Virus record (IMG/VR): IMGVR_UViG_3300035659_001474
Span: 1 to 21,109 of that record
Direction: 5' to 3' (one strand)
Length of the DNA: 21,109 bases
Origin: a virus
Lineage: Duplodnaviria; Heunggongvirae; Uroviricota; Caudoviricetes
Made by a program: the position numbers and the translations under genes. Each line of letters starts with the position of its first letter. Positions within the stretch are counted from its first letter, which is position 1. This document shows positions 154-18,491 of the stretch, piece after piece. The notes beneath the pieces were generated by a model. The model made no database searches. It was not told the DNA's origin and saw only the letters and a program-made list of their open reading frames with translations.

Positions 154-230
154 TGGTACCCCGTGCTGGAATCAAACCAGCGGCCCTCAATTTAGAAAAT
201 TGATGCTCTATTCAGCTGAGCTAACGGGGC
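154..230 (-). tRNA. tRNA-Arg(UCU)
   Basis: Full cloverleaf, TCAAT-TTTCTAA-ATTGA anticodon arm, encoded CCA; T-loop TTTGATT. Confidence 0.95.
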
Positions 231-236
231 GCAGCA

Positions 237-614
237 CTAAAAATCATTTACAACACAGTTAAGTCGTACCCAACTAACAGGACTTGCAGGCCTAAATGTC
301 TGAACTGCTTGACCTCTAGTAAACTCAATTTTTGAACCATCATCCATTACATATTCTTCTTTGTCTTTAACGTCATCGTATTTAACAGTAATGCCCATCA
401 TCAAAAGTAATGTATAAAGATTCTTAGGAATCATTTGCGTATCATCATTTGGATCTACTTCAAAATCAATTGCATCTTTAGTCACACTTTCGTCACGTTC
501 TACCATAAATTTTCGCATTATTGAAGCTATTGTATCTTTTGAATTAGTCTGACCAATATATTTCAACAATGATTCATTGATTGCAGACTTTATTTGTTGC
601 GTAACTGTTTCCAT
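237..614 (-). CDS. Hypothetical protein
   Basis: 125-aa ORF co-oriented with neighbours; no motif recognised. Confidence 0.7.
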   Translation of the reverse strand: METVTQQIKSAINESLLKYIGQTNSKDTIASIMRKFMVERDESVTKDAIDFEVDPNDDTQMIPKNLYTLLLMMGITVKYDDVKDKEEYVMDDGSKIEFTRGQAVQTFRPASPVSWVRLNCVVNDF

Positions 615-858
615 TTGTCAACCGCCTCTCTTCTTGTCAATTGAATTGCACCATTCTTAATAGCATCTTCTCTTCTTCTCGGTGTCAAATCAAAATGTAA
701 TAATCCTAGTCTACTGTTTTGTAACCATTGTTCTTTAAGACCAATTGATTTTGCAAATTGTAATAGCTCTTTAGCATCGTCAGACCACATGTGACAGCTT
801 TTGGTTACAGACCTCTAATTACAAACCCATGAGTGTATAATGGATCGATATATGTCAT
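590..858 (-). pseudogene. DUF4031-family protein, frameshifted (or sequencing error)
   Basis: MTYIDPLYTHGFVIRG from ATG 858 joins VTKSCHMWSDDAKELLQFAKSIGLKEQWLQ...HFDLTPRRREDAI if 1 nt is restored near 810; matches my recollection of the DUF4031 pattern. Confidence 0.7.
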
Positions 859-861
859 AAT

Positions 862-936
862 TGGAGATTATGGACATTGAACCCATCTGATAATTCCTGA
901 TTGCAAATCAGGTGACTCCAAGCAGTCCCAATCCCC
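862..936 (-). tRNA. tRNA-Ala(UGC)
   Basis: CCTGA-TTTGCAA-TCAGG arm; acceptor GGGGATT/AATCTCC retains G3.U70; atypical D- and T-loops. Confidence 0.85.
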
Positions 937-949
937 ATTTATTGTTTAC

Positions 950-1639
950 TTAATCTTCTCTAACATTCACATGTTTTTCTACATAATCCCTGTTTTTAGA
1001 AAATATTGGTATTTGCAAATCGACTTCATTGTCAACTATACAAAAACCTCGTTTTCTTACTACAGGATACTTGTCGAAATTAATACCCTTTTGAAACAAC
1101 AATTCTTGAATATCACTACATGATTTCTGAAACAACTCTTTGTGCGAATAATTCTCACGACCAGCAAACTGTATTGCATTTCGCGTTGCGTCAATTTGCC
1201 TCCAGACGAAATAATTAGTCACTTCATCTTGAGGTACAGAAAACACTCTACTGTCAAAACACACATTCTTACCATAGAGCCTCGAGAACACACTGCTAGC
1301 TAATGAAGCTGAAATCGATATCATCTTACAGACATCATAATCAAACCACGAATCAGTTGTTATCGTCTTATAGTCAGTCAACAGGAAACTAATCTCATCT
1401 GACTGACAATAGCAAAATTTGCAACCTTGTATGTCTTTAGCTACTACTTTCGCCGTTTCAATCATCTGGTCAACAAATTCCATTGACCATCCCTTACCAA
1501 ATCTCTTACGAGTAATAGTATGAAATGCTCGACCATCTATTCTCAAAATCACCGGTATCCTATGAGGCAATGTCCAGTGAAAACATGACTCGTAGCGCTT
1601 CATACGATCGCCAATAGACAGTCCGTCAGACTTGCTCAT
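950..1639 (-). CDS. thg1: tRNA-His guanylyltransferase / Thg1-like protein (3'-5' polymerase)
   Basis: DRMKRYE, ILRIDGRAFH, YCQSDEISFLL, FDSR, NYFVWRQIDATRN motifs. Confidence 0.95.
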   Translation of the reverse strand: MSKSDGLSIGDRMKRYESCFHWTLPHRIPVILRIDGRAFHTITRKRFGKGWSMEFVDQMIETAKVVAKDIQGCKFCYCQSDEISFLLTDYKTITTDSWFDYDVCKMISISASLASSVFSRLYGKNVCFDSRVFSVPQDEVTNYFVWRQIDATRNAIQFAGRENYSHKELFQKSCSDIQELLFQKGINFDKYPVVRKRGFCIVDNEVDLQIPIFSKNRDYVEKHVNVRED

Positions 1640-1851
1640 TATCTTGTTCCTACGGGTATAAATTGTCGTTTTTGCAAATATTTATCAGCAAGTTCTTTAT
1701 ATAAAGTATCTGCATGCTCGTAGCCACACCCTTTAACAATCAATCCATTTTTAAGGGCTACATAGCATTCTGTAGCTTCTTTTTCAGAAGGGCTCATCGA
1801 TAATGATGTTATTGTTCTTCTATTACATCCTTTGCAAATTACTTCTGACAT
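1639..1851 (-). CDS. Small Cys-containing hypothetical protein
   Basis: GAGG SD before ATG 1851 (MSEVICKGC...); the longer track start lies inside tRNA-Ile. Confidence 0.65.
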   Translation of the reverse strand: MSEVICKGCNRRTITSLSMSPSEKEATECYVALKNGLIVKGCGYEHADTLYKELADKYLQKRQFIPVGTR

Positions 1852-1866
1852 TTTTCCTCTTTCAAA

Positions 1867-1941
1867 TGGTGGGAGCAGGTAGAATTGAACTACCATCTAC
1901 TGCATATCAGACAGTGGTCCTAACCGTTGAACGATGCTCCC
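1867..1941 (-). tRNA. tRNA-Ile(GAU)
   Basis: ACTGT-CTGATAT-GCAGT arm, TTCAATT T-loop, encoded CCA. Confidence 0.95.
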
Positions 1942-1942
1942 G

Positions 1943-2344
1943 TCAGTCATTTGTTATGAACAAGAATTTTGCATTTTTGTCTTGCTTTGTTTTCTCATCA
2001 TCATACTTCATTTTCGTCGCTACACCAGATAGAAATGTCTTACCTCGAACTTCAGGACCAAGCATTGAATTAAGTGGCTGTCGCATGTCAAACATAACTG
2101 GCACTGAAATATGCGACAAGTCAGTTGTCAATGGTCTATGCTCAAACTCAATTCTTGGCATCATAAGTTCATCATATCGTCTTACCATTAACGAATCATT
2201 AATACGATCTGACCACTCATGAAACGCTCGTAAAATATCACTTTCGGCCGTAACATCAATTATTGCGTCAGTACAAGTCGTCATATGCCCAGGAAAAAAT
2301 GCATCATTGTTTCGATTAACTATCATTTCTTCAGGCATTTTCAT
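1943..2344 (-). CDS. Hypothetical protein
   Basis: 133-aa ORF filling the gap between two tRNAs. Confidence 0.65.
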   Translation of the reverse strand: MKMPEEMIVNRNNDAFFPGHMTTCTDAIIDVTAESDILRAFHEWSDRINDSLMVRRYDELMMPRIEFEHRPLTTDLSHISVPVMFDMRQPLNSMLGPEVRGKTFLSGVATKMKYDDEKTKQDKNAKFLFITND

Positions 2345-2365
2345 TCCTTCTAAGTGCAGAAGAGA

Positions 2366-2438
2366 AGCCGCCGAGAGGGTTCAAACCTCCGACCACCGCA
2401 TTACAGGTGCGGTGCTCTATCAACTGAGCTACGGCGGC
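2366..2438 (-). tRNA. tRNA-Thr(UGU)
   Basis: CCGCA-CCTGTAA-TGCGG arm (C33); acceptor GCCGCCG/CGGCGGC. Confidence 0.92.
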
Positions 2439-2473
2439 AATCACGATCACTAGCAACTCTAATGCACTAAATT

Positions 2474-3076
2474 TCATGACTCTAATACTACATTCCAGTA
2501 GATGTAATCTACCCACGTTTCATGTGGTATTTCACCCGCCAACCTACTTACTAAATGTGCAGGAGCTGCTTTATCAAGTTTTGGCGCAAAAGGTTGTCGA
2601 ATCAAAGCTCTCTTGTAATCATTGATAGATTTGTGACCCTTTTGACCATTACAACGAATACAACTGACGACGATGTTCTCCCAGCAAGTTTTACCACCTC
2701 GACTTCTTGGTATCACGTGGTCAAAAGTAAAACCTGAAAGTGACACTTTTTTACCACAATACATACAACATCCGGCATCACGAATGTAGACATTCTGTCG
2801 ACTAAATGGCAATACCTTAACATATTTCTTAGGTATATATTCAGAATGAATACATCGAATGACCGATGGAATAGGCATCGATATCCAGCTACTAGTTGAC
2901 TTGGCAACTAATTTGTCAGTGATAATAGCATTCGATGATCGTACTATAGTATTTTCGTAGTTAGCCAAAGCAACTGCTTTTTCAGAAGCTACTAATACAA
3001 TAGCACGTCGAGTATTTACCAATGACACTGGTGTTGACCAACTGTTTAATACCAAAGTCTGTAAAGGATTTGACAT
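2474..3076 (-). CDS. HNH endonuclease (McrA/HNH_5-like)
   Basis: TLVLN N-terminus; RDAGCCMYCG, TFDHVIPRSRGGKTCWENIVVSCIRCNGQKG. Confidence 0.93.
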   Translation of the reverse strand: MSNPLQTLVLNSWSTPVSLVNTRRAIVLVASEKAVALANYENTIVRSSNAIITDKLVAKSTSSWISMPIPSVIRCIHSEYIPKKYVKVLPFSRQNVYIRDAGCCMYCGKKVSLSGFTFDHVIPRSRGGKTCWENIVVSCIRCNGQKGHKSINDYKRALIRQPFAPKLDKAAPAHLVSRLAGEIPHETWVDYIYWNVVLES

Positions 3077-3097
3077 CTAACACCTCATTTTAGTAAG

Positions 3098-3169
3098 TAC
3101 TGGAGGGCAGAGTCGGACTGCCGATCAACTGATTATGATTCAGTGGTTTTACCGCTAAACTACTCCAGT
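3098..3169 (-). tRNA. tRNA with CAU anticodon (elongator Met or Ile2)
   Basis: ACTGA-ATCATAA-TCAGT arm; T-loop TCCGACT; acceptor ACTGGAG/CTCCAGT. Confidence 0.85.
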
Positions 3170-3174
3170 GCAAT

Positions 3175-3210
3175 AAAAAAGCCTCGTCGAAGTTAATCGG
3201 CGAGGCTTTT
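3175..3210 (-). terminator. Intrinsic terminator of putative attenuator 1
   Basis: AAAAGCCTCGCCGA-TTAACT-TCGACGAGGCTTTTTT hairpin followed by a U tract. Confidence 0.9.
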
Positions 3211-3236
3211 AACATTCTAGTTTGTTTGAGCCTCGC

Positions 3237-3344
3237 CTATGGTAGTTGTCCCATTCTAATTGTTGCATCATGGGCAAATGCACACACATTGCCTGTATTA
3301 CTACGGGTAATGAGTTGCAACCATTTTGGTAGATACTTTGACAT
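3237..3344 (-). CDS. Putative 35-aa attenuator leader peptide
   Basis: MSKYLPKWLQLITRSNTGNVCAFAHDATIRMGQLP; its TAG overlaps the antiterminator strand GGCGAGGCT (3237-3229); SD weak (AAGG). Confidence 0.6.
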   Translation of the reverse strand: MSKYLPKWLQLITRSNTGNVCAFAHDATIRMGQLP

Positions 3345-3412
3345 TATATTTTGCCTTTTTGTGTCCTTAAACAGTAATCACATTAAATGTCGTAGTGTTT
3401 CCACTAATACTA

Positions 3413-3441
3413 ATTTAATCTGTAATTGTTGTTCTTATCAA
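3413..3441 (-). promoter_or_regulatory. Possible sigma70-type promoter for attenuator 1
   Basis: TTGATA-17 nt-TTAAAT. Confidence 0.35.
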
Positions 3442-3445
3442 CACA

Positions 3446-3979: not shown

Positions 3980-4329
3980 TTGTCGGTCTTCTTTGCAAGC
4001 AAAATTGATTCTACTATATCTCTTGATTCAACAAAACCATCTGCTCGACCATTATGATATTTTTCAGCAAATTCATTTCTATGAGACATTTGCTCGGCAT
4101 GTATTTGTTTTTCAACCAATTTATCACTTATCTGTCCAGTAATTTGTACAAAATCTGTGGGATTAGCAAACATTTTTCGTGCAGTTTTCCACTCATTAGC
4201 GTCAATTACTACATGACCTTGTAACTTCGCTGTACATGCTTCTTCAATTTTCGGATGTCGATGTAAAAAACTAGTATCCATTTCATCGTCCTTGTTGTTT
4301 GAGCCGTGATTCTTGTTCATCAATGGCAT
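3976..4329 (-). CDS. Hypothetical protein (true start may be the downstream MDTSF)
   Basis: ORF track; stop overlaps the next start (ATGA). Confidence 0.6.
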   Translation of the reverse strand: MPLMNKNHGSNNKDDEMDTSFLHRHPKIEEACTAKLQGHVVIDANEWKTARKMFANPTDFVQITGQISDKLVEKQIHAEQMSHRNEFAEKYHNGRADGFVESRDIVESILLAKKTDK

Positions 4330-4832: not shown

Positions 4833-4842
4833 TTTACTCTAT

Positions 4843-6277: not shown

Positions 6278-6284
6278 TTCATCC

Positions 6285-8732: not shown

Positions 8733-8735
8733 AAC

Positions 8736-9019: not shown

Positions 9020-9106
9020 TGCTGGAGAAGAGACTTGAACTCTTACGAGATGATTAAATCTCACTGGATTTTGAGTCCAGCGTGTATGCCATTCCACCAC
9101 TCCAGC
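9020..9106 (-). tRNA. tRNA-Leu(CAA)
   Basis: CTGGA-CTCAAAA-TCCAG arm, long variable arm. Confidence 0.95.
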
Positions 9107-9231
9107 TCAATGCCTATAACTTTCTTGATCTTTTGCAACAACGTTATCTGGTCTAAACCCATACGTACTTGGATGATACGTGTATACGCATCCACAATGA
9201 ACACGGCTTTTTGTTCTTGAAGTTGTCATAT

Positions 9232-9387
9232 CTACCGACCAACGATAATCAATATACCCGCGATGATTGAAAGAATAGCCATAAGAATCGGCAAACTCGA
9301 AACTCTCAAATGAAGCAACGGAGTAGCACCGGCGAGAATGAGCAAAATGCCAAGCAATAACATACCAAGACTTCCAGTGATTCTCAT
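9232..9387 (-). CDS. Small 2-TM membrane protein (51 aa)
   Basis: AGGAGG SD; MRITGSLGMLLLGILLILAGATPLL...AILSIIAGILIIVGR. Confidence 0.7.
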   Translation of the reverse strand: MRITGSLGMLLLGILLILAGATPLLHLRVSSLPILMAILSIIAGILIIVGR

Positions 9388-9397
9388 TGTCGACCTC

Positions 9398-9904
9398 CTA
9401 TAGTAATTTCAAATGACCAGTTACTTCATCAATCTTCTCCGAAAAATCAGGCCCAATGGCCAAACAAGTAATAGTCTTCACGCCCTTAAACTCTGTCAAC
9501 CCATTATCCTCAATCAAAGCAACAGGCAACTTCAACCGCTCAGCTTTTACCTTAATCTCTAGTAACTCTTGTTCTGAACTCACTTGTAAACAAATTTTAG
9601 TGAATATACCCTCCATCCACTCTTTCATCTGCTGATTAATACTCAACATCGGCTCACCATTTACATACTCAATCCTATCAAAAAATATCTTCATTGAACT
9701 GTGGCAGCCTTGCGCTACCATTTTTCCCTTACGCATGTTCAAATCAGTTCTCATGACAATTACTTGCTTAATCATAGTTGTAACCTCTTCATAAGTAGTA
9801 AATCGATGACCAAGTTCACATATGCGACGACGTCGAATACGGTCATCAGATTTTCTAGAATCAATAACCTTAGACACCTTATGACATTGTGGACAAAGAA
9901 GCAT
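9398..9904 (-). CDS. pth2: Peptidyl-tRNA hydrolase Pth2 with in-frame N-terminal NrdR-like Zn ribbon
   Basis: KQVIVMRTDLNMRKGKMVAQGCHS, KICLQV, IEDNGLTEF, TCLAIGP, VTGHLKLL; N-terminus CPQC..KVIDSR..IRRRRIC..GHRFTTYE. Confidence 0.93.
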   Translation of the reverse strand: MLLCPQCHKVSKVIDSRKSDDRIRRRRICELGHRFTTYEEVTTMIKQVIVMRTDLNMRKGKMVAQGCHSSMKIFFDRIEYVNGEPMLSINQQMKEWMEGIFTKICLQVSSEQELLEIKVKAERLKLPVALIEDNGLTEFKGVKTITCLAIGPDFSEKIDEVTGHLKLL

Positions 9905-10085
9905 TAGATTCTATCATCATAAGGTTTAAGATACGAATGTCTTCATTCTCAGTAATCCACTTAACAATATCATCTTCAGTACATTGAAGTCCAGGATGAG
10001 AATTATCTATTAACCAATTCAAGTCTTCTTCAGTAAGCGTTCCAAACTGCTTCTCAACACCTTTAACTATTGGATTACTTCTCAT
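9879..10085 (-). CDS. Small hypothetical protein
   Basis: 68-aa ORF. Confidence 0.55.
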   Translation of the reverse strand: MRSNPIVKGVEKQFGTLTEEDLNWLIDNSHPGLQCTEDDIVKWITENEDIRILNLMMIESNASLSTMS

Positions 10086-10105
10086 AAATCAGTCTCTATT
10101 AAAAA

Positions 10106-10418
10106 TGCCCAAGGTCGGACTCGAACCGACACGGCCTTGCGACCAAGAGATTTTACATGCTAACTACGCCTTTCGACGCCGGTTTTCACCGTTTGTAGTC
10201 TGGACTTTGTCTTCACCATCGTGAGAATTTCTCACATTAGGTGGATGCCGTTAAGTCTCTACACCTTCTAATACTTTTCAGTACTAGCTTGGCTCGGCGT
10301 TGGGTCGAGTTTAACCTCAGGCCGTTCACCGAATTTGACATCTTACATCTATACCGTTTCCAGTATAGCGACCCTCATTTGCGAAAGTCTCTAGTGTCTG
10401 CCATTCCACCACTCGGGC
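10106..10418 (-). tRNA. tRNA-Leu(UAA) split by an intron (exons 10418-10386 and 10155-10106)
   Basis: Joining the exons gives AGAGA-CTTAAAA-TCTCT, a long variable arm and TTCGAGT T-loop. Confidence 0.92.
10156..10385 (-). ncRNA. Group I self-splicing intron (IC3-like), 230 nt
   Basis: 5' exon ends in U, intron ends in G; GACU/GGUC P1; AAATTCGGTGAA, GTAGAGACT and GAAGACAAAGTCCA core elements. Confidence 0.9.
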
Positions 10419-10444
10419 AATCTGCACAATCTGAAACTTGTAAG

Positions 10445-10518
10445 TGGACTCGCCAGGATTTGAACCTGGGACCATCTCGTTATGAGCGAGTGCCTCTAAC
10501 CAACTGAGATACGAGTCC
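10445..10518 (-). tRNA. tRNA with CAU anticodon (Ile2-like or elongator Met)
   Basis: CTCG-CTCATAA-CGAG arm, TTCAAAT T-loop, acceptor GGACTCG/CGAGTCC. Confidence 0.9.
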
Positions 10519-10557
10519 ATTACCTCCTACTACTACTTCATATTGATCTAATCAATC

Positions 10558-10806
10558 CTATTCTCGATGATCAAACTGTTTATCTACTTTATCTTGCTCA
10601 GCTTCCATCTGCTCATTCAACGTTGCCATTCGTAACTCAATCTCATTGTCATCTAACTGAATCATATCTGCTAAAAACATCAACTCTCGAAACTTATCAA
10701 GATATTTATTACAAACAACAAGCTTTGCAGTAGTATATGCCAATCGTCGTTCTACTTGTTCTTGTGACGTCCAATCCATAAACTCTATGAATCTCTCTCT
10801 ATACAA
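10558..10806 (-). CDS. Hypothetical coiled-coil protein
   Basis: 82-aa ORF; start uncertain. Confidence 0.55.
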   Translation of the reverse strand: MYRERFIEFMDWTSQEQVERRLAYTTAKLVVCNKYLDKFRELMFLADMIQLDDNEIELRMATLNEQMEAEQDKVDKQFDHRE

Positions 10807-11387
10807 AACTTCCCGTCATCATACAAATACATCAAACTTTGAGTACTATTGTCACTCTCTATCTCCGGCTCTGCCTCAAACGCTGCCTGATCACCCACCA
10901 GACCATTAAACTCCCACACTGAAAGAAATCCAACATTAAATACATGCTCCCATTTCTTATTTTGTGCTACAACTGCTTTCACACTCAATGTATCTAAATC
11001 AACAGACTTAACAACTAACACTATATCATGCTGAACAATCTTTTGTCCAGGCACTACATACTTTCTTAACAAACTCTTAATCTTAGCTCTATCTTGAGCC
11101 TGTCGTGCCCTAGCTATTTTCTTTTGTTCCATCATCTCAATAACTGATTCAACTTTGAAATTCGGATTCCACTTGACCTTGTCTACATCTGTTGATATTA
11201 TTGCACCACAACTCTCAAGACTTGATAATGTTGATCGCAATAGTTTCTGTATCTCATTATCTGATTCTTCATTTAGCAAGTATCTATATTGCTTAAATGA
11301 ACCCTCAGTAAAGAATCCAAATACTCGACCAATCTTATATAGAGCTGCTTCTATTGAATCATCAGTCTTCAAAAACTCATTCAACAT
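10785..11387 (-). CDS. Hypothetical protein
   Basis: 200-aa ORF with GAGG SD. Confidence 0.75.
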   Translation of the reverse strand: MLNEFLKTDDSIEAALYKIGRVFGFFTEGSFKQYRYLLNEESDNEIQKLLRSTLSSLESCGAIISTDVDKVKWNPNFKVESVIEMMEQKKIARARQAQDRAKIKSLLRKYVVPGQKIVQHDIVLVVKSVDLDTLSVKAVVAQNKKWEHVFNVGFLSVWEFNGLVGDQAAFEAEPEIESDNSTQSLMYLYDDGKFCIERDS

Positions 11388-11676
11388 TTTTCACCTCTGG
11401 TAATCCAAAATCATGTCTTAAATGACTACAAAGCTCTCCTTCGTTAGTCTCCAAATTCAACCACTGCCCGCATACAGCACAGCCTATAGCATTTGGCTTC
11501 AAGTCATGTTTCTCTATTTGCGAGAAAGCTTCTAAGAGTTGTTTTTCAGTCGGTGTTCGAATCTGCTTATTAATAAGACATACTGATGAATCACGTTCTA
11601 CATTGCATCCTTCAGGTTGCTCAAACCACGTACAATCTGGACACTTTCCATGACCTGTCATTTGTTCGTGAGACAT
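11377..11676 (-). CDS. Cys-rich hypothetical protein
   Basis: 99 aa, CPDC and CAVC motifs, GAGG SD. Confidence 0.7.
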   Translation of the reverse strand: MSHEQMTGHGKCPDCTWFEQPEGCNVERDSSVCLINKQIRTPTEKQLLEAFSQIEKHDLKPNAIGCAVCGQWLNLETNEGELCSHLRHDFGLPEVKNVE

Positions 11677-11855
11677 TTATTGTCCTCTTCTTGCACAATT
11701 TGCGCACGGGCATCATAATAGCGTAATTCAAGACTTGAACTTCTTGCTCGACATTCTTTACATTCAACAGTGCGTGAGACATCATTACATTCAGATGTCT
11801 TAACATTATTGCCACACAATAATGTTTTTGTATCATCTACAAGATGAGTTTTCAT
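11658..11855 (-). CDS. Small Cys-containing hypothetical protein
   Basis: 65 aa, LCG...VECKEC. Confidence 0.6.
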   Translation of the reverse strand: MKTHLVDDTKTLLCGNNVKTSECNDVSRTVECKECRARSSSLELRYYDARAQIVQEEDNKCLTNK

Positions 11856-12001
11856 CTAATTTTCTCAATACGATAGTAAACCCCAGCTTCTTCTATGAGC
11901 TCACCAACGCTTGTAACAAAGTCAAGTCCGCATTTCTGTAATGTTGCTACTAATATTTCGTCTTCTCTTTTTCCTGTGGCTGATGCATAAATTTTCCACA
12001 T
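11852..12001 (-). CDS. Small hypothetical protein (49 aa)
   Basis: GAGG SD; MWKIYASATGKRED...; ATGA overlap with the next gene. Confidence 0.6.
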   Translation of the reverse strand: MWKIYASATGKREDEILVATLQKCGLDFVTSVGELIEEAGVYYRIEKIR

Positions 12002-12013
12002 ATTGTTCCTCAG

Positions 12014-12190
12014 TCAATTTGTATCTTCTTCAACACACTTAGGCAATCGAACTAACTTAGGATAGAATGTCCTATGATGAAGAACATCATTATACTTCAC
12101 GCAAGTGTGCATATTCTTATTGGTAGGAAACGTTTCACGACCATTTTCGGGCGGTGAAATAAAGTCGCAATCTTCTTTACAAAAATGCAT
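12014..12190 (-). CDS. Small Cys-containing hypothetical protein (58 aa)
   Basis: Translated by hand: MHFCKEDCDFISPPE...RLPKCVEEDTN. Confidence 0.5.
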   Translation of the reverse strand: MHFCKEDCDFISPPENGRETFPTNKNMHTCVKYNDVLHHRTFYPKLVRLPKCVEEDTN

Positions 12191-12211
12191 GATTTGTCCA
12201 TTGAACTAAAG

Positions 12212-12302
12212 TGGCGGAGAGTGTAGGATTCGAACCCACGGAGCTATTAATTAACTCATCAAGGTTCAAGCTTGACGCCTTAAACCACTCGGCCAACTCT
12301 CC
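12212..12302 (-). tRNA. tRNA-Ser(UGA)
   Basis: TCAAG-CTTGAAC-CTTGA arm, long variable arm, G73, encoded CCA. Confidence 0.95.
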
Positions 12303-12410
12303 AACGTTCTCGCTTATCATTGCTTAAGACATGATATACTATGAAAGAACCATCTACTCATTTACGACAACTGTTAATTATGTCGTTGATTATGTCGTTG
12401 TTCTTTGTAA

Positions 12411-12497
12411 TAGGAGTAGCAGGAATTGAACCTGCGGTAACCGGAAAGCCGCCCCCGACTTATAAGATCGGTGCTCTAACCTCTGAGCTATACTCCT
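12411..12497 (-). tRNA. tRNA-Ile(UAU) with long variable arm
   Basis: CCGAT-CTTATAA-GTCGG arm followed by a 19-nt extra region. Confidence 0.85.
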
Positions 12498-12526
12498 GTA
12501 TTTTAATCAATATGTAACTTGAAGAA

Positions 12527-12788
12527 TACTCTCGCTCGGACTTGAACCGAGATAGCGTTAGCAAAGTTCCTATTAAGAAACGCGATTCCTGCCGCACATA
12601 AACCCTCTGGGACTGTTACCAGATTCCCAGCAGCGTGTCAGTTCTGCCGCAACCTTGGAACTTCCTTAACTTCGAGCCTAATCTTACGACTAGTAAAGTC
12701 TCATAAAGACTTACTCTAATTAAGTCTAACACTCCTTTTACAGTACCGGTTCGTTTTTACCGGTGCTTTACCGTTAAGCTACGAGAGC
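12527..12788 (-). ncRNA. 262-nt tRNA-like RNA with a large structured insertion
   Basis: Acceptor GCTCTCG/CGAGAGT, canonical D-arm and T-arm; non-canonical 8-nt loop in place of the anticodon loop; about 180 nt extra between this arm and the T-arm. Confidence 0.75.
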
Positions 12789-13640
12789 AATACTAGCGGC
12801 ACTACGAGTCGAACGCCTTAATTTCTTTGTCATTATTTTCTTCTTTGGAATACCTAAATAAGCTAAAAACTTAGTAAATTCAAATTCAACAAATTCAGGA
12901 TCATAACTTCCTAAATCTGCAATAACATATTCTTGATAACCGCACTTTCTAATTTGATCAATTTTAATCTTGTCTCTAGTTTGAACTTGTAAAACAGAAT
13001 GTCTTTTATTACACTATTTATAATGCCACATTCCATTCCATAAAATTGCAATTTTTTGATTTTTAAGAATGATGTCTGCATCCCAACCATTAAACATATT
13101 TACATTATGTAAAACGTCGACAAATTTACTATTGCATAAATTAAAAAACATAATTTCATTCTTACTTCGCTTAACATTAACTGTCGATGACTTTAACCCT
13201 CCAAAATGACCAATGTATGTCGATAAACATTTTCTAGAACAAAACCGTTTTCTATCTTTTCTTAATGCGTCATTAAATCGTAAAAATGATTTATTGCAAA
13301 CATAACAGTGTACTTCTGTTTGAGCACGTTTACATTCATCACATTTAATTTTATTTGCTGCTAATCCAGCCAATGTTAATTTATTGCACGAACAGCAATG
13401 AATAAGTTTTTTCAACTTCTTATTGACTCTAGAATGAGAACACTTTTTACTACAATAAGACACTGTTTGATTTTCATGTCCAACTTTACATGTAACATGA
13501 AATATACTGCCACACTTTTTACATATTTTACTTACAATTACACGTTCTTTTCGTGGCCGCTGTGTATGAGCTGATGAATAATGCGCAGCTAAAGAATGTC
13601 TAGTTTCAAATTCACTATCGCACTTTTTACATTTATACAT
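12774..13640 (-). pseudogene. Putative PD-(D/E)XK homing endonuclease with Zn-finger N-terminus, interrupted by an in-frame TAG at 13014-13016
   Basis: C2H2-like and CxxC..FCS..C motifs; SKNE..GWDADI..IAILWNG.WHY; the frame stays open for 79 more codons (KRHSVLQVQTRDKIKI..GY..YVI.D.G). Confidence 0.75.
12792..12822 (-). pseudogene. Possible tRNA 3'-end remnant (T-loop plus acceptor-like strand)
   Basis: GCG-TTCGACT-CGT followed by AGTGCCGCTA. Confidence 0.35.
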
Positions 13641-13699
13641 GTTTCTATACTATGCAAATTGCGTTTCGCAATTTACACTAAGTTATTCTAGAACATAAA

Positions 13700-13772
13700 T
13701 AGCGGGCGCAGGAGTCTAACCTGCATTCGTCTGGTTATGAGCCAGATCGAGACACACGCCTCGCCACCCGCA
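13700..13772 (-). tRNA. tRNA-Met(CAU), initiator-like
   Basis: U1/U72 mismatch, GCGGGT/GCCCGC stem, TCTGG-CTCATAA-CCAGA; D-loop lacks GG, T-loop TTAGACT. Confidence 0.8.
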
Positions 13773-13790
13773 AACTTGAATTTTACTTAA

Positions 13791-13853
13791 TAGCCGGTGA
13801 GAGACTTGAACTCCCAATGTCCTACATTGAGACTTTCCAGACCACCGGGCCTA
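13791..13853 (-). pseudogene. Degenerate tRNA remnant
   Basis: GGGAG-TTCAAGT-CTCTC T-arm, CAATGT/ACATTG hairpin, CCGGTG/CACCGG stem; no D-arm or anticodon arm. Confidence 0.55.
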
Positions 13854-13855
13854 GC

Positions 13856-14770
13856 CTACCGCAATAAAACTGTTTTCAATTTTGCAATGCATTCATCTAA
13901 ACTATTCTTAATGTCACTAGCAGTAAACCTAATAATTATCCAACCATTATTTCTTGACCATTCATCTCTCTTTTTATCTTTATTCTTAACAGAATCTAAA
14001 GTATGAGTCTTACCATCAATTTCTACATCAATTTTACTATTTACAAATGCGAAATCATATTCATAAATTCCAATTTTATACCTTTGCTGCCATCCACAAA
14101 TGTCATGCTCAATTAATGCTTTTTTAAACAATTCTTCAACATATGAAAGTTTAGAGCTATGATATAATCTATATGGTAGCTTATCAGGATTATCACTAAA
14201 GAACTTTTGCATAGATCTAGAAAGCTTTTGTTTTGACTCACTAGAGTGCGACCAATGTTGTTTATGCACTTTGCAATCTTTTAATGCAATTTTAGCAATT
14301 ACCTTACCATACTTTCTTCTAAGTTCGCGTTTTGTCATGCCTGTGTCATAAAGTTCTCTAATTTGATTCAACAGAGCTTGCTGATGATTATTGATTATTG
14401 TATGACAAGACTTTTGATGTCTAATTAAATTGCCTTTGTTAAAACTTCTATTACATTCACATTTGATTAAGCCACCAAAATAATGGCTTTTGTCAATTAT
14501 TTTTCTTCTAGTACTTATTTTTCTTCTAGTACTTTTATGAGAAAGATATTGACTTTCACTTGAAGATCTTGCTTGCATATTTCTAAGAGCATAATTAATC
14601 ACTTCTCTAGTATAACCTAATCGCTTTATTTCACGTTTAGAGAAGCCATCATTGTACAGATCTATGATTTTGTTAAAATCGTCGTCTGTTACTTTACAAC
14701 GAAAATTGTGTTGACTACAAGTTGATTTGTTGCTAAATGCTCGATTACATTTATCACAAATGTAATTCAT
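13856..14770 (-). CDS. DUF559/Vsr-like putative homing endonuclease with duplicated Zn-finger/HTH modules
   Basis: YEYDFAF..KIDVEIDGKTH...DKKRDEW..NGWIIIRF. Confidence 0.85.
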   Translation of the reverse strand: MNYICDKCNRAFSNKSTCSQHNFRCKVTDDDFNKIIDLYNDGFSKREIKRLGYTREVINYALRNMQARSSSESQYLSHKSTRRKISTRRKIIDKSHYFGGLIKCECNRSFNKGNLIRHQKSCHTIINNHQQALLNQIRELYDTGMTKRELRRKYGKVIAKIALKDCKVHKQHWSHSSESKQKLSRSMQKFFSDNPDKLPYRLYHSSKLSYVEELFKKALIEHDICGWQQRYKIGIYEYDFAFVNSKIDVEIDGKTHTLDSVKNKDKKRDEWSRNNGWIIIRFTASDIKNSLDECIAKLKTVLLR

Positions 14771-14800
14771 TTTTATCCTTGATTATTACTACTCGACCCG

Positions 14801-15103
14801 CTATTTTGATTTCAACTTCTGAAAAAAATTCTTACCCCAATCAGACTCAATCAACAATTCATGAGGAAACAACCTGCTATGAGAATATACAAAATCCCCA
14901 TAATATCCCTTACCATCTTTACCCATGCACCAAACATCAGAAACTTCTCTCAAAACAGGTAATAATACTTCACTCTCGACATCTTTCTTCATCACAAGTT
15001 TAACTCTATGACGAAGCTTACGATTTGCAATCTGCTTATCTTTCTTCTCACTCCTACAACCACTGTGTCCTGCGACTAGATGCTTACGATAAGAACGCGA
15101 CAT
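14801..15103 (-). CDS. Basic 'MSRSYR'-type hypothetical protein, copy 2
   Basis: AAGGAG SD; MSRSYRK..SEKKDKQIANRKLR..REVSDVWCMGKDGK. Confidence 0.8.
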   Translation of the reverse strand: MSRSYRKHLVAGHSGCRSEKKDKQIANRKLRHRVKLVMKKDVESEVLLPVLREVSDVWCMGKDGKGYYGDFVYSHSRLFPHELLIESDWGKNFFQKLKSK

Positions 15104-15125
15104 GTGCAACTCCTTGTTAAGGTAA

Positions 15126-15134
15126 TTACATCAT
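15126..15134 (-). promoter_or_regulatory. Two-codon minigene ATG-ATG-TAA
   Basis: Preceded by AAAGGAGG at 5-nt spacing; ends 22 nt upstream of the MSRSYR start. Confidence 0.7.
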
Positions 15135-15161
15135 GCGTTCCTCCTTTGTTAAATTTGAAAA

Positions 15162-15233
15162 TAGGCGCGGGCGGAGTCGGACCGCCAACCTGCTGGATGT
15201 AAGCCAGCTCATCTGCCATTGATATACACGCCC
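15162..15233 (-). tRNA. tRNA-Val(UAC)
   Basis: GCTGG-CTTACAT-CCAGC arm; T-loop TCCGACT. Confidence 0.9.
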
Positions 15234-15398
15234 TTAAATTTTCACGCCAATCGGTTCTTTATTGTCGATGAGCTTTTGTAATTTGACCGTACTATCTACA
15301 GGAAGACTCAATTTTGCCAGTAATTCTTTAGCTACTTCTCTAGCAGCTAAATCATCAATCTGTTCCATCGGAATCTTAATCATCATCTGGTACTTCAT
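15234..15398 (-). CDS. Small hypothetical protein (54 aa)
   Basis: AAGGAG SD before MKYQMMIKIP. Confidence 0.6.
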   Translation of the reverse strand: MKYQMMIKIPMEQIDDLAAREVAKELLAKLSLPVDSTVKLQKLIDNKEPIGVKI

Positions 15399-16605
15399 TT
15401 GAATCTTCTCCTTTAGCACGCTTAAAACAATTCTTTTCATAAAACTCTAACATATTTTTTCGCATCCACCTATTAATTTTTTGTGGCCGCTTATTAAGTA
15501 TAATTGCAACTTGTTTTACCCAACCAAACTTTGAAAAATTAATGTTTGATTGTAGTATTTTATTAACTTGATTTTGTCTTAGTAACTGTTTACTACTTTC
15601 TATTTCTTGTGACTTACATTGCTTTCTATTAGCTATCTCGTCTAATGCATGTAAACATCGTAATTGGTTATTTGTAAATTCAGACATCAACACATTTCGT
15701 GTTTCTTTGTGTTTTAAGATTTCTGCGATTTGATCAAATTTAGTCTTTGAATCTTTAAATATAGCTTGCCAAGATATTCTAAAAACATCAATATTTTTTG
15801 ACTTTATTAATTGATCTTTTTTATCATCAATAATTTTTCGTCTAATGTATCGATAATGTTGTTTACCGTCAATTTCAATTACTAGCGCTAATTCTGGAAA
15901 ATAAAAATCTGCTCTATAAATTGAAAACGGAAATTCAGTGAAAAACTGTTTATTATGTTCATAACCTTGATTTATTAAGAATTCAAAAAACACTTTTTCA
16001 GCATAAGACTGTCTGTGCCATGTATTTGCTCGTTCTTCTTTATGCAGTTTTTTACATTTTTCAGAAAATCTTTGTTTTGATTCTTCAGACCACTTAAAGG
16101 AGTATTTAGTATGTGCTAATTTACTTGCCTCTGCAGCTGATCGTCTATGTTGTCTCAAAGCATGTTTTATAAGTCCAGTACTAAATCCTTGTAAGACTAT
16201 TTCACTTGGCGACTGTCCAGATTTATATAAACTTCGAACTTTTTCAATGTCAATATCAGTATATTTAAGACAAGTATGTCGTTCGAAATTTCCTTTGTTA
16301 AATGACTTATTGCACTTACTGCAAACTATACGGTTATTACTAAAATTGTTTACTTTCTTTCGTTGTGCTTTAGAATGTGATATTTTTAATGTCTCACTAG
16401 CAGTTCTTTTTAAGTCTTTAACACATCTATTAACTTGATTTCTTGTATATCCCATATTAACTATGTCAACTACAAATTGCCCAGATCTATACAAGTCTCT
16501 AATTTTTTGTCGATCAGGTTTAGAAATGGTGCAATTCTTCTTATGTGATGCGAAACCTCCAAAATTTGAAAAAATCTTATCACAATTTTCGCATTGCAAA
16601 TTCAT
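15376..16605 (-). CDS. DUF559/Vsr-like putative homing endonuclease (409 aa)
   Basis: AAGGAG SD before MNLQCENC (the track start is inside tRNA-Ser); YRADFYFPELALVIEIDGKQH...DDKKD..FRISW; duplicated N-terminal modules; C-terminal HTH-like tail. Confidence 0.85.
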   Translation of the reverse strand: MNLQCENCDKIFSNFGGFASHKKNCTISKPDRQKIRDLYRSGQFVVDIVNMGYTRNQVNRCVKDLKRTASETLKISHSKAQRKKVNNFSNNRIVCSKCNKSFNKGNFERHTCLKYTDIDIEKVRSLYKSGQSPSEIVLQGFSTGLIKHALRQHRRSAAEASKLAHTKYSFKWSEESKQRFSEKCKKLHKEERANTWHRQSYAEKVFFEFLINQGYEHNKQFFTEFPFSIYRADFYFPELALVIEIDGKQHYRYIRRKIIDDKKDQLIKSKNIDVFRISWQAIFKDSKTKFDQIAEILKHKETRNVLMSEFTNNQLRCLHALDEIANRKQCKSQEIESSKQLLRQNQVNKILQSNINFSKFGWVKQVAIILNKRPQKINRWMRKNMLEFYEKNCFKRAKGEDSNEVPDDD

Positions 16606-16630
16606 GATATCTCCTTTTAGAGTATCATGA

Positions 16631-16658
16631 ATTATAAACAAACGTTCAATTCCGACAA
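16631..16658 (-). promoter_or_regulatory. Possible sigma70 promoter for the endonuclease gene
   Basis: TTGTCG-16 nt-TATAAT. Confidence 0.45.
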
Positions 16659-16678
16659 TTAGAGAATCATGGCATTTT

Positions 16679-16765
16679 TGGCGGTGAGTGAGAGACTTGA
16701 ACTCCCATATCCCTTTCGGGACGCTCGAATTCGAATCGAGTGGACTGCCATTATCCGAACTCACC
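16679..16765 (-). tRNA. tRNA-Ser(CGA)
   Basis: CTCGA-TTCGAAT-TCGAG arm, long variable arm, G73, encoded CCA. Confidence 0.92.
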
Positions 16766-16786
16766 GTAATGTTACTCTCAAATAAA

Positions 16787-16871
16787 TGGATCGGGAAGGA
16801 TTTGAACCTTCGTAGTCCGTTAGGACGACAGATTTACAGTCTGTTACGATTGACCACTCTGACACCGATCC
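16787..16871 (-). tRNA. tRNA-Tyr(GUA)
   Basis: ACAGA-CTGTAAA-TCTGT arm, long variable arm. Confidence 0.95.
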
Positions 16872-17133
16872 AAATTTCATTTCTTCTTGCTTTCCATTCA
16901 GGTATGGGTTCATGTACTTCGAGTTCTCCACTCCAACATGATACCCAGGGCCACGGATCCCACCGACTCTTATAGTCGCAAATATTCCAGTTATCAAAGT
17001 ATTTGCGATAGATTTTGCCGTTTGGTACGTCTTTAGCTCTTCTGATCACGCGATTAGCTTCTCTTTTTGCAAACTTTTTGTAGCTAGAGCCATAGCCACA
17101 AACGAAGACTGGTTCGCGATAACTTCGAGACAT
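16834..17133 (-). CDS. Basic 'MSRSYR'-type hypothetical protein, copy 1
   Basis: AAGGAG SD; MSRSYRE..KKFAKREANRVIRR..FDNWNICDY; 3' end overlaps tRNA-Tyr. Confidence 0.8.
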   Translation of the reverse strand: MSRSYREPVFVCGYGSSYKKFAKREANRVIRRAKDVPNGKIYRKYFDNWNICDYKSRWDPWPWVSCWSGELEVHEPIPEWKARRNEIWIGVRVVNRNRL

Positions 17134-17156
17134 GTTGTTCACTCCTTGTTAGTATT

Positions 17157-17165
17157 TTACAACAT
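17157..17165 (-). promoter_or_regulatory. Two-codon minigene ATG-TTG-TAA
   Basis: Preceded by AAAGGAGG at 5-nt spacing; ends 23 nt upstream of the MSRSYR start. Confidence 0.7.
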
Positions 17166-17196
17166 ATTGACCTCCTTTAGTTGAAGTTGAAAAAAG

Positions 17197-17271
17197 TAGC
17201 CCATAGCAGAGTCGAACTGCTGTCAACGCCTTGAAAAGACGTGGTCCTAAAAACCGCTGGACGAATGGGCC
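17197..17271 (-). tRNA. tRNA-Glu(UUC)
   Basis: ACGTC-TTTTCAA-GGCGT arm, TTCGACT T-loop. Confidence 0.93.
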
Positions 17272-17292
17272 GCATTTTGTTTTCAGCACTAA

Positions 17293-17364
17293 AGCGAGCG
17301 ACCGGGATTGAACCGGCGTGAACCTACTTGGAAAGAAGGTGCCTGACCACTAGGCTACACTCGC
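17293..17364 (-). tRNA. tRNA-Gly(UCC)
   Basis: CCTTC-TTTCCAA-GTAGG arm (one U.U mismatch), U73. Confidence 0.9.
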
Positions 17365-17372
17365 AATTATCA

Positions 17373-17438
17373 TGGCAGGCGTGCAAGGACTCGAACCCTG
17401 GTGGGAATCAGCCATTCTAGCCGCTGAATTACACGCCT
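17373..17438 (-). pseudogene. Truncated tRNA (CCC, Gly-like) missing the 3' anticodon strand and variable loop
   Basis: 66 nt; perfect acceptor AGGCGTG/CACGCCT, D-arm, T-arm and CCA, but GCTGA-TTCCCA has no partner strand. Confidence 0.7.
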
Positions 17439-17450
17439 ATAAACTTTATC

Positions 17451-17525
17451 TGGCGGACTCGACGGCTACTGATGCCGTGTTCTCAGCCGTGACAAGGCTG
17501 TATGTTACCATTACACCACGAGTCC
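17451..17525 (-). tRNA. tRNA-Asp(GUC) with non-canonical T-loop
   Basis: CAGCC-TTGTCAC-GGCTG arm, G73, CCA; T-arm ACGGC-ATCAGTA-GCCGT. Confidence 0.88.
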
Positions 17526-17538
17526 ATACTAAAAAATT

Positions 17539-17630
17539 CTGACAGTTGGTCATTCCTACGACCAGTCCTGCCGGCACACTGTCGAGTGCCTTGGGAGCTG
17601 GTACCGTTTCCAGTTCTAAGTTTGACCTTG
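17539..17630 (-). ncRNA. Candidate pseudoknotted small RNA between tRNA-Leu and tRNA-Asp
   Basis: GGCAC/GTGCC and TGGTC/GACCA stems, loop GACAGT complementary to 3' ACTGTC, GAAA-tetraloop hairpin. Confidence 0.45.
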
Positions 17631-17635
17631 TAATA

Positions 17636-17721
17636 TGCGAGAAGCGAGAGTTGAACTCGCAAGGAATATTACTTCCATTGGGGTCTAAGCCCAACGCGTC
17701 TGCCAATTCCGCCATCCTCGC
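17636..17721 (-). tRNA. tRNA-Leu(UAG)
   Basis: TTGGG-CTTAGAC-CCCAA arm, long variable arm. Confidence 0.95.
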
Positions 17722-17794
17722 GCAATTACATTCTCAAATGTGCTTCATCATCAATATGTCAAAGAGCTTTGAATCAGTGTCTCTAGAATGTAAG

Positions 17795-17868
17795 TACCTG
17801 CAGTCGGATTTGAACCGACGACTCCGATATTAAAAGTATCGTACTCTGACCATCTGAGTTATGCAGGC
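17795..17868 (-). tRNA. tRNA-Lys(UUU)
   Basis: CGATA-CTTTTAA-TATCG arm. Confidence 0.95.
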
Positions 17869-17926
17869 ATTTACTTAATCTCAAAGATCGCTAATCGTCG
17901 TCAATTGAATCATACAACTATCTAAG

Positions 17927-18003
17927 GGTGCGTGACGGGACTTGAACCCGCAAAATCTCTGGACTCACAATCCAGCGCTTTAGCCAATTAAGCTACACGC
18001 ACC
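17927..18003 (-). tRNA. tRNA-His(GUG) with genomically encoded G-1
   Basis: CTGGA-TTGTGAG-TCCAG arm; G-GTGCGTG/CACGCAC-C gives G-1:C73. Confidence 0.95.
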
Positions 18004-18013
18004 ATATATTTAG

Positions 18014-18103
18014 TGGCCCCGGCAGGATTTGAACCTGCGATGTGAGCTGTAAGCCCAGACAGATTAAGAATCTGTTACCCTCGATCCGCTAGGTGACGGA
18101 GCC
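18014..18103 (-). tRNA. tRNA-Lys(CUU) with long variable arm
   Basis: ACAGA-TTCTTAA-TCTGT arm plus a 20-nt arm containing TGGGC-TTACA-GCTCA. Confidence 0.85.
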
Positions 18104-18121
18104 AAACGCTTGTCAGATTTG

Positions 18122-18271
18122 TCATTGTCCATTTGGATCCGCTCCTTTTAAGTTGTCAATAGGCCAGACCAATTTTGTGATTGGTTTTGGTTTCCGGCCC
18201 CATTTTTGTTCTTTTGACATTTCGACAACATCTTTTGGAAGCAAGCATTTTGAGACTTCAAATTTTTCCAT
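18122..18271 (-). CDS. Small hypothetical protein (49 aa), first gene after attenuator 2
   Basis: AAGGAGG SD; MEKFEVSKCLLPKDVVEMSKEQKWGRKPKP... Confidence 0.65.
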   Translation of the reverse strand: MEKFEVSKCLLPKDVVEMSKEQKWGRKPKPITKLVWPIDNLKGADPNGQ

Positions 18272-18291
18272 AGCGAGCCTCCTTAAAATAG

Positions 18292-18327
18292 AAAAACCCC
18301 GTCGATCTGTTTGACCGGCGGGGTTTT
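18292..18327 (-). terminator. Intrinsic terminator of putative attenuator 2
   Basis: AAAACCCCGCCGGTC-AAACA-GATCGACGGGGTTTTT. Confidence 0.9.
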
Positions 18328-18356
18328 GTGTTTAGCCTAAGTGTTTTAGGATTAAC

Positions 18357-18491
18357 TCAAACCCCGCCTGTCCATATCTTATCATAGCCTTCGTATCCAA
18401 GCGACAGCCATGATAATTTGGACAACTCCAATACCACGTGTCGTTTGACACGTTCTATTGATAGCGTGGTATGAAGTTGTAGGGTTTGCAT
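18357..18491 (-). CDS. Putative 44-aa attenuator leader peptide
   Basis: GGAG SD; MQTLQLHTTLSIERVKRHVVLELSKLSWLSLGYEGYDKIWTGGV; last codons and TGA overlap the antiterminator strand GGCGGGGTTT (18368-18359). Confidence 0.7.
   Translation of the reverse strand: MQTLQLHTTLSIERVKRHVVLELSKLSWLSLGYEGYDKIWTGGV

Follow-up and report, generated by a model that had tools for sequence, protein, structure and literature searches.

Here we consider the tRNA clusters of an uncultivated myovirus and the attenuator-like leader regions that precede them in IMG/VR record IMGVR_UViG_3300035659_001474. The window denotes the first 21,109 nt of this 128,327-nt contig (G000, 36% G+C), and positions refer to the window unless the contig is named. 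Relatives of G000 include contigs up to 416 kb. Nearly all genes of the window lie on the minus strand, where two tRNA-rich units can be seen. Unit A (154..3169) consists of Met-CAT, an HNH endonuclease, Thr-TGT, Ile-GAT, Thg1, Ala-TGC, DUF4031, and Arg-TCT, and its gene order is identical in the relative G001 (IMGVR_UViG_3300032516_000008). Unit B (9020..18103) contains, in this order and with open reading frames (ORFs) interspersed, Lys-CTT, His, Lys-TTT, Leu-TAG, Asp, a Trp-like remnant, Gly, Glu, Tyr, Ser-CGA, Val, Met, Ile-TAT, Ser-TGA, Met, Leu-TAA (with a group I intron), and Leu-CAA. ARAGORN called 20 tRNAs in the window, and the intron-split tRNA-Leu(UAA) brings the total to 21, the number that an earlier sequence-only reading of the same DNA had assigned to the two units. 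Rfam added a weak tRNA-like remnant (17376-17438) and a group I intron (10177-10395).

Anatomy of the attenuators

The sequence-only reading also held that two attenuators of the same design head the tRNA-rich units. The motifs, folds, and leader ORFs involved were all found, and both elements are kept in G001. The motif CCYCGCCG occurs exactly twice in the window, on the minus strand (3205-3198 and 18323-18316), and so does TCGACGRGG (3190-3182 and 18305-18297). By chance, about 0.1 matches would be expected. The hairpins of terminator A (3175..3210, minus strand) and terminator B (18292..18327, minus strand), each with its U-tract, fold at -18.5 and -20.3 kcal/mol with z-scores of -5.4 and -6.2, respectively. 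A competing upstream helix uses the 5' arm of the terminator together with a partner about 30-40 nt upstream, and folds at -19.8 (A) and -29.1 kcal/mol (B). All four folds have z-scores of -5.4 or lower and none was equalled by any shuffle. Below, segment 1 denotes the upstream partner, segment 2 the 5' arm of the terminator, and segment 3 its 3' arm, so that a 1:2 pairing corresponds to an antiterminator and a 2:3 pairing to the terminator. None of the other minus-strand terminators of the window approaches A or B, and no other strong one lies between unit B and attenuator A.

Each terminator is preceded by a short ORF on the minus strand. Leader ORF A (3344-3237) encodes 35 amino acids, ends in TAG, and is kept in G001 with synonymous and a few replacement changes. 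The site before it, AAGG, is a weaker Shine-Dalgarno sequence than those of the other leaders. Its segment 1, GGCGAGGCT (3229..3237, minus strand), begins at the G of the TAG stop codon, and the duplex with segment 2 has an energy of -19.9 kcal/mol (0/1000 shuffles). Leader ORF B (18491-18357) encodes 44 amino acids behind a GGAG Shine-Dalgarno sequence (18501-18498), and in G001 it shows a 3-nt indel and several synonymous substitutions. Its segment 1, GGCGGGGTTT (18359..18368, minus strand), is located in the last four leader codons and forms a duplex of -23.6 kcal/mol with segment 2 (0/1000 shuffles). Terminator B has a C.A mismatch at a point where the antiterminator pairs perfectly.

A search of the genome and of related phages for further copies was part of the earlier proposal. 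Taken literally, the composite motif occurs nowhere in the whole 128-kb contig but at the A and B sites; attenuators of the same design were nevertheless found both in the contig and in its relatives. The sequence common to the regions upstream of leaders A and B, when searched across the contig, led to position 36448, upstream of a third tRNA cluster. This cluster is headed by attenuator C (contig 36346-36190, minus strand, outside the window). Leader C has 31 codons, MRITTNNTFSNSNCTCNFCFSNSRNELVEFA, and its end pairs with the 5' arm of a terminator built like those of A and B, C.A mismatch included. Both attenuators of the earlier reading are real, although the genome has three rather than two.

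The shared upstream sequence is found as a putative promoter at 3372..3404 (A, minus strand, kept in G001) and at 18543..18575 (B, minus strand, TGG-N5-TCTACG-N11-TGATTAtt). In the form TGG-N5-6-TCTAYGA-N10-11-TGATTAWT it precedes all three G000 leaders and three of the four leaders of the 416-kb relative G002, and it may act as a promoter. The motif is also present at about three further places in the contig, the listed sites being at about 36448, 51514, and 67288 on the minus strand and 45139 on the plus strand.

A mechanical scan of the 128-kb contig for strong hairpins with U-tracts gave 16 terminators. Only four have an upstream partner at or below -12 kcal/mol, and three of the four head the tRNA clusters, with partners of -19.9, -23.2, and -21.8 kcal/mol. 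The upstream partners of the other twelve range between -5 and -11.3 kcal/mol. The fourth terminator with a partner (-15.2 kcal/mol) is located at contig position 121226.

Searching with the tail sheath identified G002 (76% identity) and G003, together with a fragment. G000 and G001 have three attenuators each, G002 has four, and G003 has one, 11 in total, and all four of G002 stand directly before a tRNA cluster. The geometry of the 11 copies is uniform. The leaders have 21-46 codons, and their ATG follows a GGAG, AAGGA, or GAGGA site at 6-9 nt. In 11/11 copies segment 1 falls between -17 and +16 nt relative to the stop codon, and the distance from stop codon to U-tract is 53-63 nt. Terminators fold at -16 to -21 kcal/mol and antiterminator duplexes at -14.4 to -23.6 kcal/mol, and no duplex was attained in more than 13 of 1000 dinucleotide shuffles of the sequence upstream. 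The distance from the terminator to the first tRNA is 5-190 nt in 10 of the 11 clusters and about 380 nt in G003.

The helix sequences are unrelated among types A-D, and within a type they are unrelated between G000 and G002 (compare GGCGAGGCT with AACAGGGCTT), while both pairings are kept. Among the four C-type copies, 100% of the cells of the terminator alignment are paired, with three compensated pairs; for the antiterminator 98% are paired, with one compensated and three one-sided changes. When the C-type registers were slid by 1-3 columns, only 27-65% of the cells paired. In most copies the terminator has a mismatch, a bulge, or a G.U pair where the antiterminator pairs perfectly. This suggests that the default would be biased toward readthrough.

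Wider searches returned little beyond these genomes. Neither the whole window nor either attenuator had a match in a DNA search of a phage collection, three degenerate pattern scans of viral contigs gave only chance matches or relatives already known, and a metagenome scan recovered only contigs equal to G002 and G003. Among sequencing runs, none of RNA was listed as containing this DNA, whereas one DNA run of a sediment metagenome contains it and may be where it came from. Rfam hits at or above the gathering threshold in the window were limited to tRNA and group I intron, with no amino-acid operon leader family (Trp_leader, His_leader, Leu_leader, Thr_leader, and others) among them. Likewise, the T-box (RF00230), with its stem I specifier loop and antiterminator bulge, had no Rfam match in the window.

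Codon content of the leaders and the downstream tRNAs

Codon cognacy was scored by standard wobble rules, with the phage's own genes as background. Leader C is composed of Asn, Ser(AGY), Cys, Phe, and Thr codons, and cluster C contains Phe(GAA), Ser(GCU), Cys(GCA), and Thr(CGU) tRNAs and an intron-split Asn(GUU). As many as 20 of 30 codons are cognate to the leader's own cluster (binomial P 9e-11), and 0 of 34,066 genomic windows of the same length reach this value. Seven of the codons are Asn, yet at first no tRNA-Asn was called anywhere in the genome. The leader therefore predicted a tRNA-Asn, and tRNA-Asn(GUU) was then found: Rfam reports a group I intron beside tRNA-Phe, and the exons flanking it splice to an Asn gene. 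The split copy lies at contig 35834-36038 (minus strand), and the corresponding tRNA-Asn(GUU) of G001 is intron-less. In both this tRNA and tRNA-Leu(UAA) of the window (10106-10418, minus strand) the group I intron interrupts the anticodon loop.

Leader A contains the run GCA ACA ATT AGA ATG (Ala-Thr-Ile-Arg-Met; 3252..3266, minus strand), in which every one of the five unit A tRNAs (Ala-UGC, Thr-UGU, Ile-GAU, Arg-UCU, and Met-CAU) has its codon once. A five-codon run of this kind occurs once in all six frames of the contig, at 1 of 256,626 positions, and this occurrence is the one in leader A. Leader B has 26/43 codons cognate to the roughly 15 tRNA species of unit B (P 0.03), as compared to 18/42 and 10/42 in the other two frames. 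The match is likewise confined to the ORF frame in leader C, where 20/30 compares with 2/29 and 3/29. In G002, the type D leader MLTLRQTQPQQPRQPRSNMLM, which begins MLTLRQTQPQQPRQPR, stands before Pro-UGG, Gln-UUG, Pro-CGG, Gln-CUG, Arg-UCG, and Arg-GCG tRNAs, and its match of 10/20 (P 1e-6) falls to 1/19 in each of the other frames.

The match extends to isoacceptors. Ser is written as AGY in C leaders, whose clusters have Ser-GCU, and as TCN in B leaders, whose clusters have Ser-UGA and Ser-CGA; Arg in the D leader is CGN; and the codon ACG is used only where the cluster has tRNA-Thr-CGU. Leaders and clusters also change together between genomes. In G002 the A-type cluster gained tRNA-Val(UAC) and its leader gained Val-Val-Val, and the C-type cluster is without tRNA-Thr(CGU) and its leader is without the ACG codon. 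Across genomes the C leaders keep their composition while the order of residues is shuffled, which points to selection on codon content and not on the peptide. The frame-preserving indels and synonymous substitutions seen in the leaders have the appearance of a coding signature.

The leader-by-cluster matrix is diagonal in every genome. Codons of a leader's own cluster are enriched 1.3-6-fold, and codons of other clusters stand at 0-1.16-fold with no significant enrichment, the 1.16-fold value being the only one above expectation. The sequence-only reading had treated the leaders as codon-diverse sensors of stalling, and this part of it does not hold, since each leader is matched in frame to its own cluster and depleted for the codons of the others. 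Leader B looks codon-diverse because its cluster holds about 15-16 different tRNAs.

Tunturi_5 was examined as an out-of-sample test of the match between leaders and clusters. By sheath protein, the nearest GenBank records are the uncultured 485-kb phage LR745208.1 and the Tunturiibacter phage Tunturi_5 (PP885688.1, 309 kb, sheath 33% identical), a cultured jumbo phage from Tunturiibacter psychrotolerans X4BP1. Tunturi_5 has three tRNA clusters, each behind a small ORF and a terminator. One leader, MKTLCLSSYCLSSSLSLS..., precedes Leu, Cys, Leu, Leu, Tyr, Leu, Ser, Ser, and Ser tRNAs; another, MQHVSTFRFAVPATAGNPAGQQGT..., precedes Gln, Gly, Thr, Pro, His, Ala, and Phe tRNAs; and a leader of 49 amino acids rich in Asp, Arg, Lys, Val, Gly, Ile, and Trp precedes Trp, Asp, Met, Lys, Val, Arg, Glu, Ile, and Gly tRNAs. 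The ORFs are located at 231156-231254, 239222-239335, and 251573-251722 of PP885688.1. Enrichment for the own cluster has P values of 3e-4, 2e-3, and 1e-4, and codons of the other clusters are depleted. The paper on this phage lists 43 tRNAs and makes no mention of their control (PMC11924767). Genes for tRNA nucleotidyltransferase and an RtcB-type ligase are also present in the tRNA region of Tunturi_5.

In LR745208.1 the tRNAs are sorted by amino acid (Leu x5, Ser x4, Thr x3, and Arg x3 with Gly x2) around 153.3, 175.0, 188.9, and 200.4 kb. Matching small ORFs occur right after sigma-70-like promoters, for example the Thr-rich MRFFTTTRTRTAGLTRKG before three tRNA-Thr genes. Although matched leaders are present, no clear U-tract terminators were seen, and we did not count this genome as a member of the set.

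Two explanations that give leader translation no regulatory role can be weighed at this point. The elements could be ordinary operon-end terminators, with the small ORFs encoding small proteins and the complementarity being incidental or serving RNA processing or stability. The terminators do follow upstream genes on the same strand, and the third Tunturi_5 leader, the only one annotated, is recorded as a hypothetical protein (ORF308). However, antiterminator partners far beyond those of shuffles and of the genome's other terminators, a uniform geometry, leaders conserved in composition and not in sequence, and a codon-tRNA match with P down to 1e-10 make this account extremely improbable. Alternatively, a phage or host factor (a protein, a small RNA, or a tRNA in the manner of a T-box) could bind the 1:2 hairpin, or control could be purely temporal, with leader translation irrelevant in either case. 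The type B antiterminator hairpin has a conserved inner stem-loop, and the polymerase and promoter class are unassigned. This account is still very unlikely, given that no T-box or other Rfam cis-regulatory family was matched and that it leaves unexplained the frame-specific codon match, the Shine-Dalgarno ORFs, and the tracking of tRNA content across clusters and genomes.

Probable feedback on tRNA supply and the genes of the units

Taken together, we consider it likely that ribosome-mediated, leader-peptide transcription attenuators gate the phage tRNA clusters, one per cluster, as feedback on the supply of each tRNA set. The anatomy of the elements, its conservation, and the codon-to-tRNA match are direct observations. 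The mechanism would operate as follows. A transcript would begin at the shared promoter-like motif and encode a leader of 21-49 codons followed by the three RNA segments, with segment 1 in the stretch that a ribosome would occupy as it completes the leader. Segment 3 is transcribed after segments 1 and 2, and the antiterminator would therefore form unless segment 1 is covered. When the leader is read fast, a ribosome at the last codons or at the stop codon would cover segment 1, segment 2 would pair with segment 3, and the terminator would keep the tRNA genes off. When charged tRNA is scarce and the ribosome stalls early, or when no ribosome loads, segments 1 and 2 would pair and transcription would read through into the cluster. 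The codons at which the ribosome would be delayed are read by the downstream tRNAs, so that the loop would act as negative feedback on their supply. The quantity sensed would be charged tRNA deliverable by EF-Tu, host and phage pooled, and each set would be on when the host-plus-phage supply for its codons is limiting and shut off otherwise. The anatomy fits the logic put forward in the earlier reading, in which a stall gives readthrough and a ribosome at the stop codon gives termination, and the units are indeed headed by such elements. That translation decides termination, and in which direction and how strongly, we infer from the arrangement of the segments.

Several points weigh against this interpretation. 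First, termination, readthrough, and translation of the leaders are themselves predictions. Second, there are three segments and not the classical four, with no separate 1:2 pause hairpin and no pause element defined. Third, segment 1 lies so near some matched codons of the B and C leaders that a stall at these codons would leave it covered by the ribosome. Fourth, the match of leader A over the whole ORF is not significant (8/34, P 0.17), so the case for it rests on the five-codon run. The enrichment in B leaders is modest (P 0.007-0.03), because the tRNAs of cluster B read about 45% of the codons in use. The antiterminator pairings of Tunturi_5 are weak, at about -10.5 kcal/mol. Finally, the promoter-like motif is no textbook sigma-70 site.

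The stop codons of the leaders deserve a separate remark. TAG is the stop codon of leader A (window 3239-3237) and of leader C (contig 36253-36251), and cluster C includes an amber-suppressor tRNA with anticodon CUA (contig 33583-33657, minus strand). The C leader of G002 ends in TAA, and no suppressor tRNA was seen in its cluster C, which amounts to one phylogenetic event only. Reading of the stop codon may, on this slight evidence, be one of the metered quantities.

Apart from tRNAs, the units carry genes that the earlier reading regarded as part of one regulon. Thg1 (950-1639, minus strand, Pfam E 2e-23) is inside unit A, and an N-terminal NrdR-type zinc ribbon fused in frame to PTH2 (9398-9904, minus strand; PF01981 E 6e-34, PF22811 E 4e-12) is inside unit B, and the presence of Thg1 and Pth2 was thus correctly recognized. 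Two MSRSYR paralogues are present as it described, each behind a two-codon minigene: one (16834..17165, minus strand) with ATG TTG TAA (17165-17157) and a homologue in unit B of G002, and the other (14801..15134, minus strand) with ATG ATG TAA (15134-15126). Both minigenes sit behind AAAGGAGG, a second Shine-Dalgarno site and the MSRSYR paralogue come next, and the pairs directly follow tRNA-Glu and tRNA-Val. No strong terminator or promoter motif of the shared class intervenes between the attenuators and the Thg1, PTH2, and MSRSYR genes inside the gated units. These genes belong to the proposed regulon only by position, and Thg1 and Pth2 may be co-regulated with the tRNAs. Both are retained in G001, but the fetched tRNA regions of G002, a more distant relative, yielded neither. 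The conserved core accordingly appears to consist of leader, attenuator, and tRNAs.

This gene content bears on the broader proposal of the sequence-only reading, namely that the attenuators form a global alarm that holds back the tRNAs and repair genes pending a general failure of translation, chiefly against abortive infection by tRNA cleavage or against starvation. A circuit that is on with untranslated or stalled leaders would open all units upon general translation failure, and Thg1 and PTH2 are inside the units. Unit B begins with Lys, His, and Lys tRNAs, leader B has Lys, His, Tyr, and Asp codons, and the tRNA species for these four amino acids are targets of known anticodon nucleases. 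On the other hand, the leaders are depleted for the codons of other clusters, which an alarm does not need and which feedback on each set predicts; Thg1 and PTH2 were not found in the G002 tRNA regions that were fetched; and nothing in the sequence ties the circuit to a defence. We regard the global alarm as unlikely. Cluster-specific leaders point instead to supply-and-demand feedback set by set. A role against host defences is a possible use of such feedback, compatible with it as a consequence, rather than something the sequence itself establishes. Giant phages could, somewhat speculatively, hold a bank of independent tRNA "supply meters" that tunes their supplement to the host and replaces tRNAs destroyed by nucleases, doubling as a counter-defence coupled to a sensor.

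The remaining features of the window and its relatives are as follows. An HNH endonuclease (2474-3076, minus strand, Pfam) is located in unit A, and Pfam also identified DUF559-type homing-endonuclease-like genes in the window. Directly past terminator B, a 49-amino-acid ORF with an AAGGAGG Shine-Dalgarno sequence (18122..18271, minus strand) is kept in G001 with in-frame indels. The 63-nt remnant at 17376-17438 (minus strand) has the acceptor stem of the G001 tRNA-Trp(CCA) but no regular anticodon arm. It probably represents a tRNA-Trp in decay, and leader B still holds two TGG codons. Directly upstream of promoter motif B, three tandem genes (18578-20483, minus strand) have a common MKHLAxIQ N-terminal module; the first is an ADP-ribosyltransferase (Pfam E 8.5e-20), for which a search with it as query found no relative. 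Unusual tRNA genes occur in the relatives. ARAGORN reported tRNAs with 8-nt anticodon loops and four-base "anticodons" CTTG and CTTT (fragment L139 of G001, 6035-6184; fragment L136 of G003, 5845-5918), which have Rfam tRNA scores of 53-57 bits and may be frameshift-type or otherwise unusual decoders. G002 also carries several odd tRNA-like genes, and in its fragment L133 (3114-3725, minus strand) a group I intron abuts or overlaps the phage tmRNA gene (Rfam 91 and 80 bits).

Comparison with known systems

The reason for which phages carry tRNA genes has long been debated, and little attention has been paid to how such genes are controlled. The large repertoire described here, clustered with genes for tRNA processing and repair, resembles the tRNA sets of T4, T5, and huge phages. 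Accounts of those sets (Bailly-Bechet et al. 2007; Al-Shayeb et al. 2020, both as cited in PMC11924767) treat phage tRNAs as a codon-usage supplement or a counter-defence, and their concern is the reason for carriage. A full-text literature search gave no account of leader-peptide attenuation or demand-sensing control of tRNA genes in phage or cell. The E. coli pheV gene was considered as a precedent on account of a possible Phe-rich leader and was rejected, as in the MG1655 sequence the promoter immediately precedes the tRNA and a leader is absent; PMC3082878 covers only pheL of pheA.

If the proposed control is true, it would be the most direct feedback on tRNA supply known to us and would carry a mechanism familiar from amino-acid operons over to the decoding machinery. 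Phage tRNA sets would, by implication, be inducible, modular, and able to adapt to the host. The leaders would then serve as a sequence-only predictor of the codons that a phage expects to be limiting, and the elements would be compact codon-specific sensors of translation speed that can be reused as reporters. A bench test is possible because the cultured Tunturi_5 has the same arrangement.

The minigenes before both MSRSYR genes resemble those of the lambda bar type in having ATG-NNG-TAA behind a strong Shine-Dalgarno sequence, and a PTH2 gene is also present in unit B; here they are a side feature, outside the attenuators. T-box riboswitches similarly sense the status of tRNA and choose between a terminator and an antiterminator. 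They bind uncharged tRNA through a specifier codon and the T-box bulge, without translation, and control synthetase or amino-acid genes, whereas the putative signal here is a translated ORF.

A closer likeness is to the leader-peptide attenuators of pheST (pheM) and of the amino-acid operons of enterobacteria (trpL, hisL, leuL, pheL, and especially the multivalent thrL and ilvL). Both have a short leader enriched in regulatory codons and an intrinsic terminator before the first regulated gene with a mutually exclusive antiterminator, and in both, as far as the anatomy of our elements suggests, the position of the ribosome selects the fold such that scarce charged tRNA gives readthrough. The differences are several. 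The elements here are encoded by phages, one per tRNA cluster, and matched no Rfam leader family. The regulated genes are tRNAs, so the loop would close directly on the sensed molecule. The leaders are "checklists" of up to about 15 tRNAs, matched at the level of isoacceptors. With three segments, an untranslated leader would result in readthrough and not in super-attenuation. While the class of mechanism is textbook, its use on tRNA clusters, the multi-tRNA checklist leaders, and the three-segment layout are, as far as we found, new.

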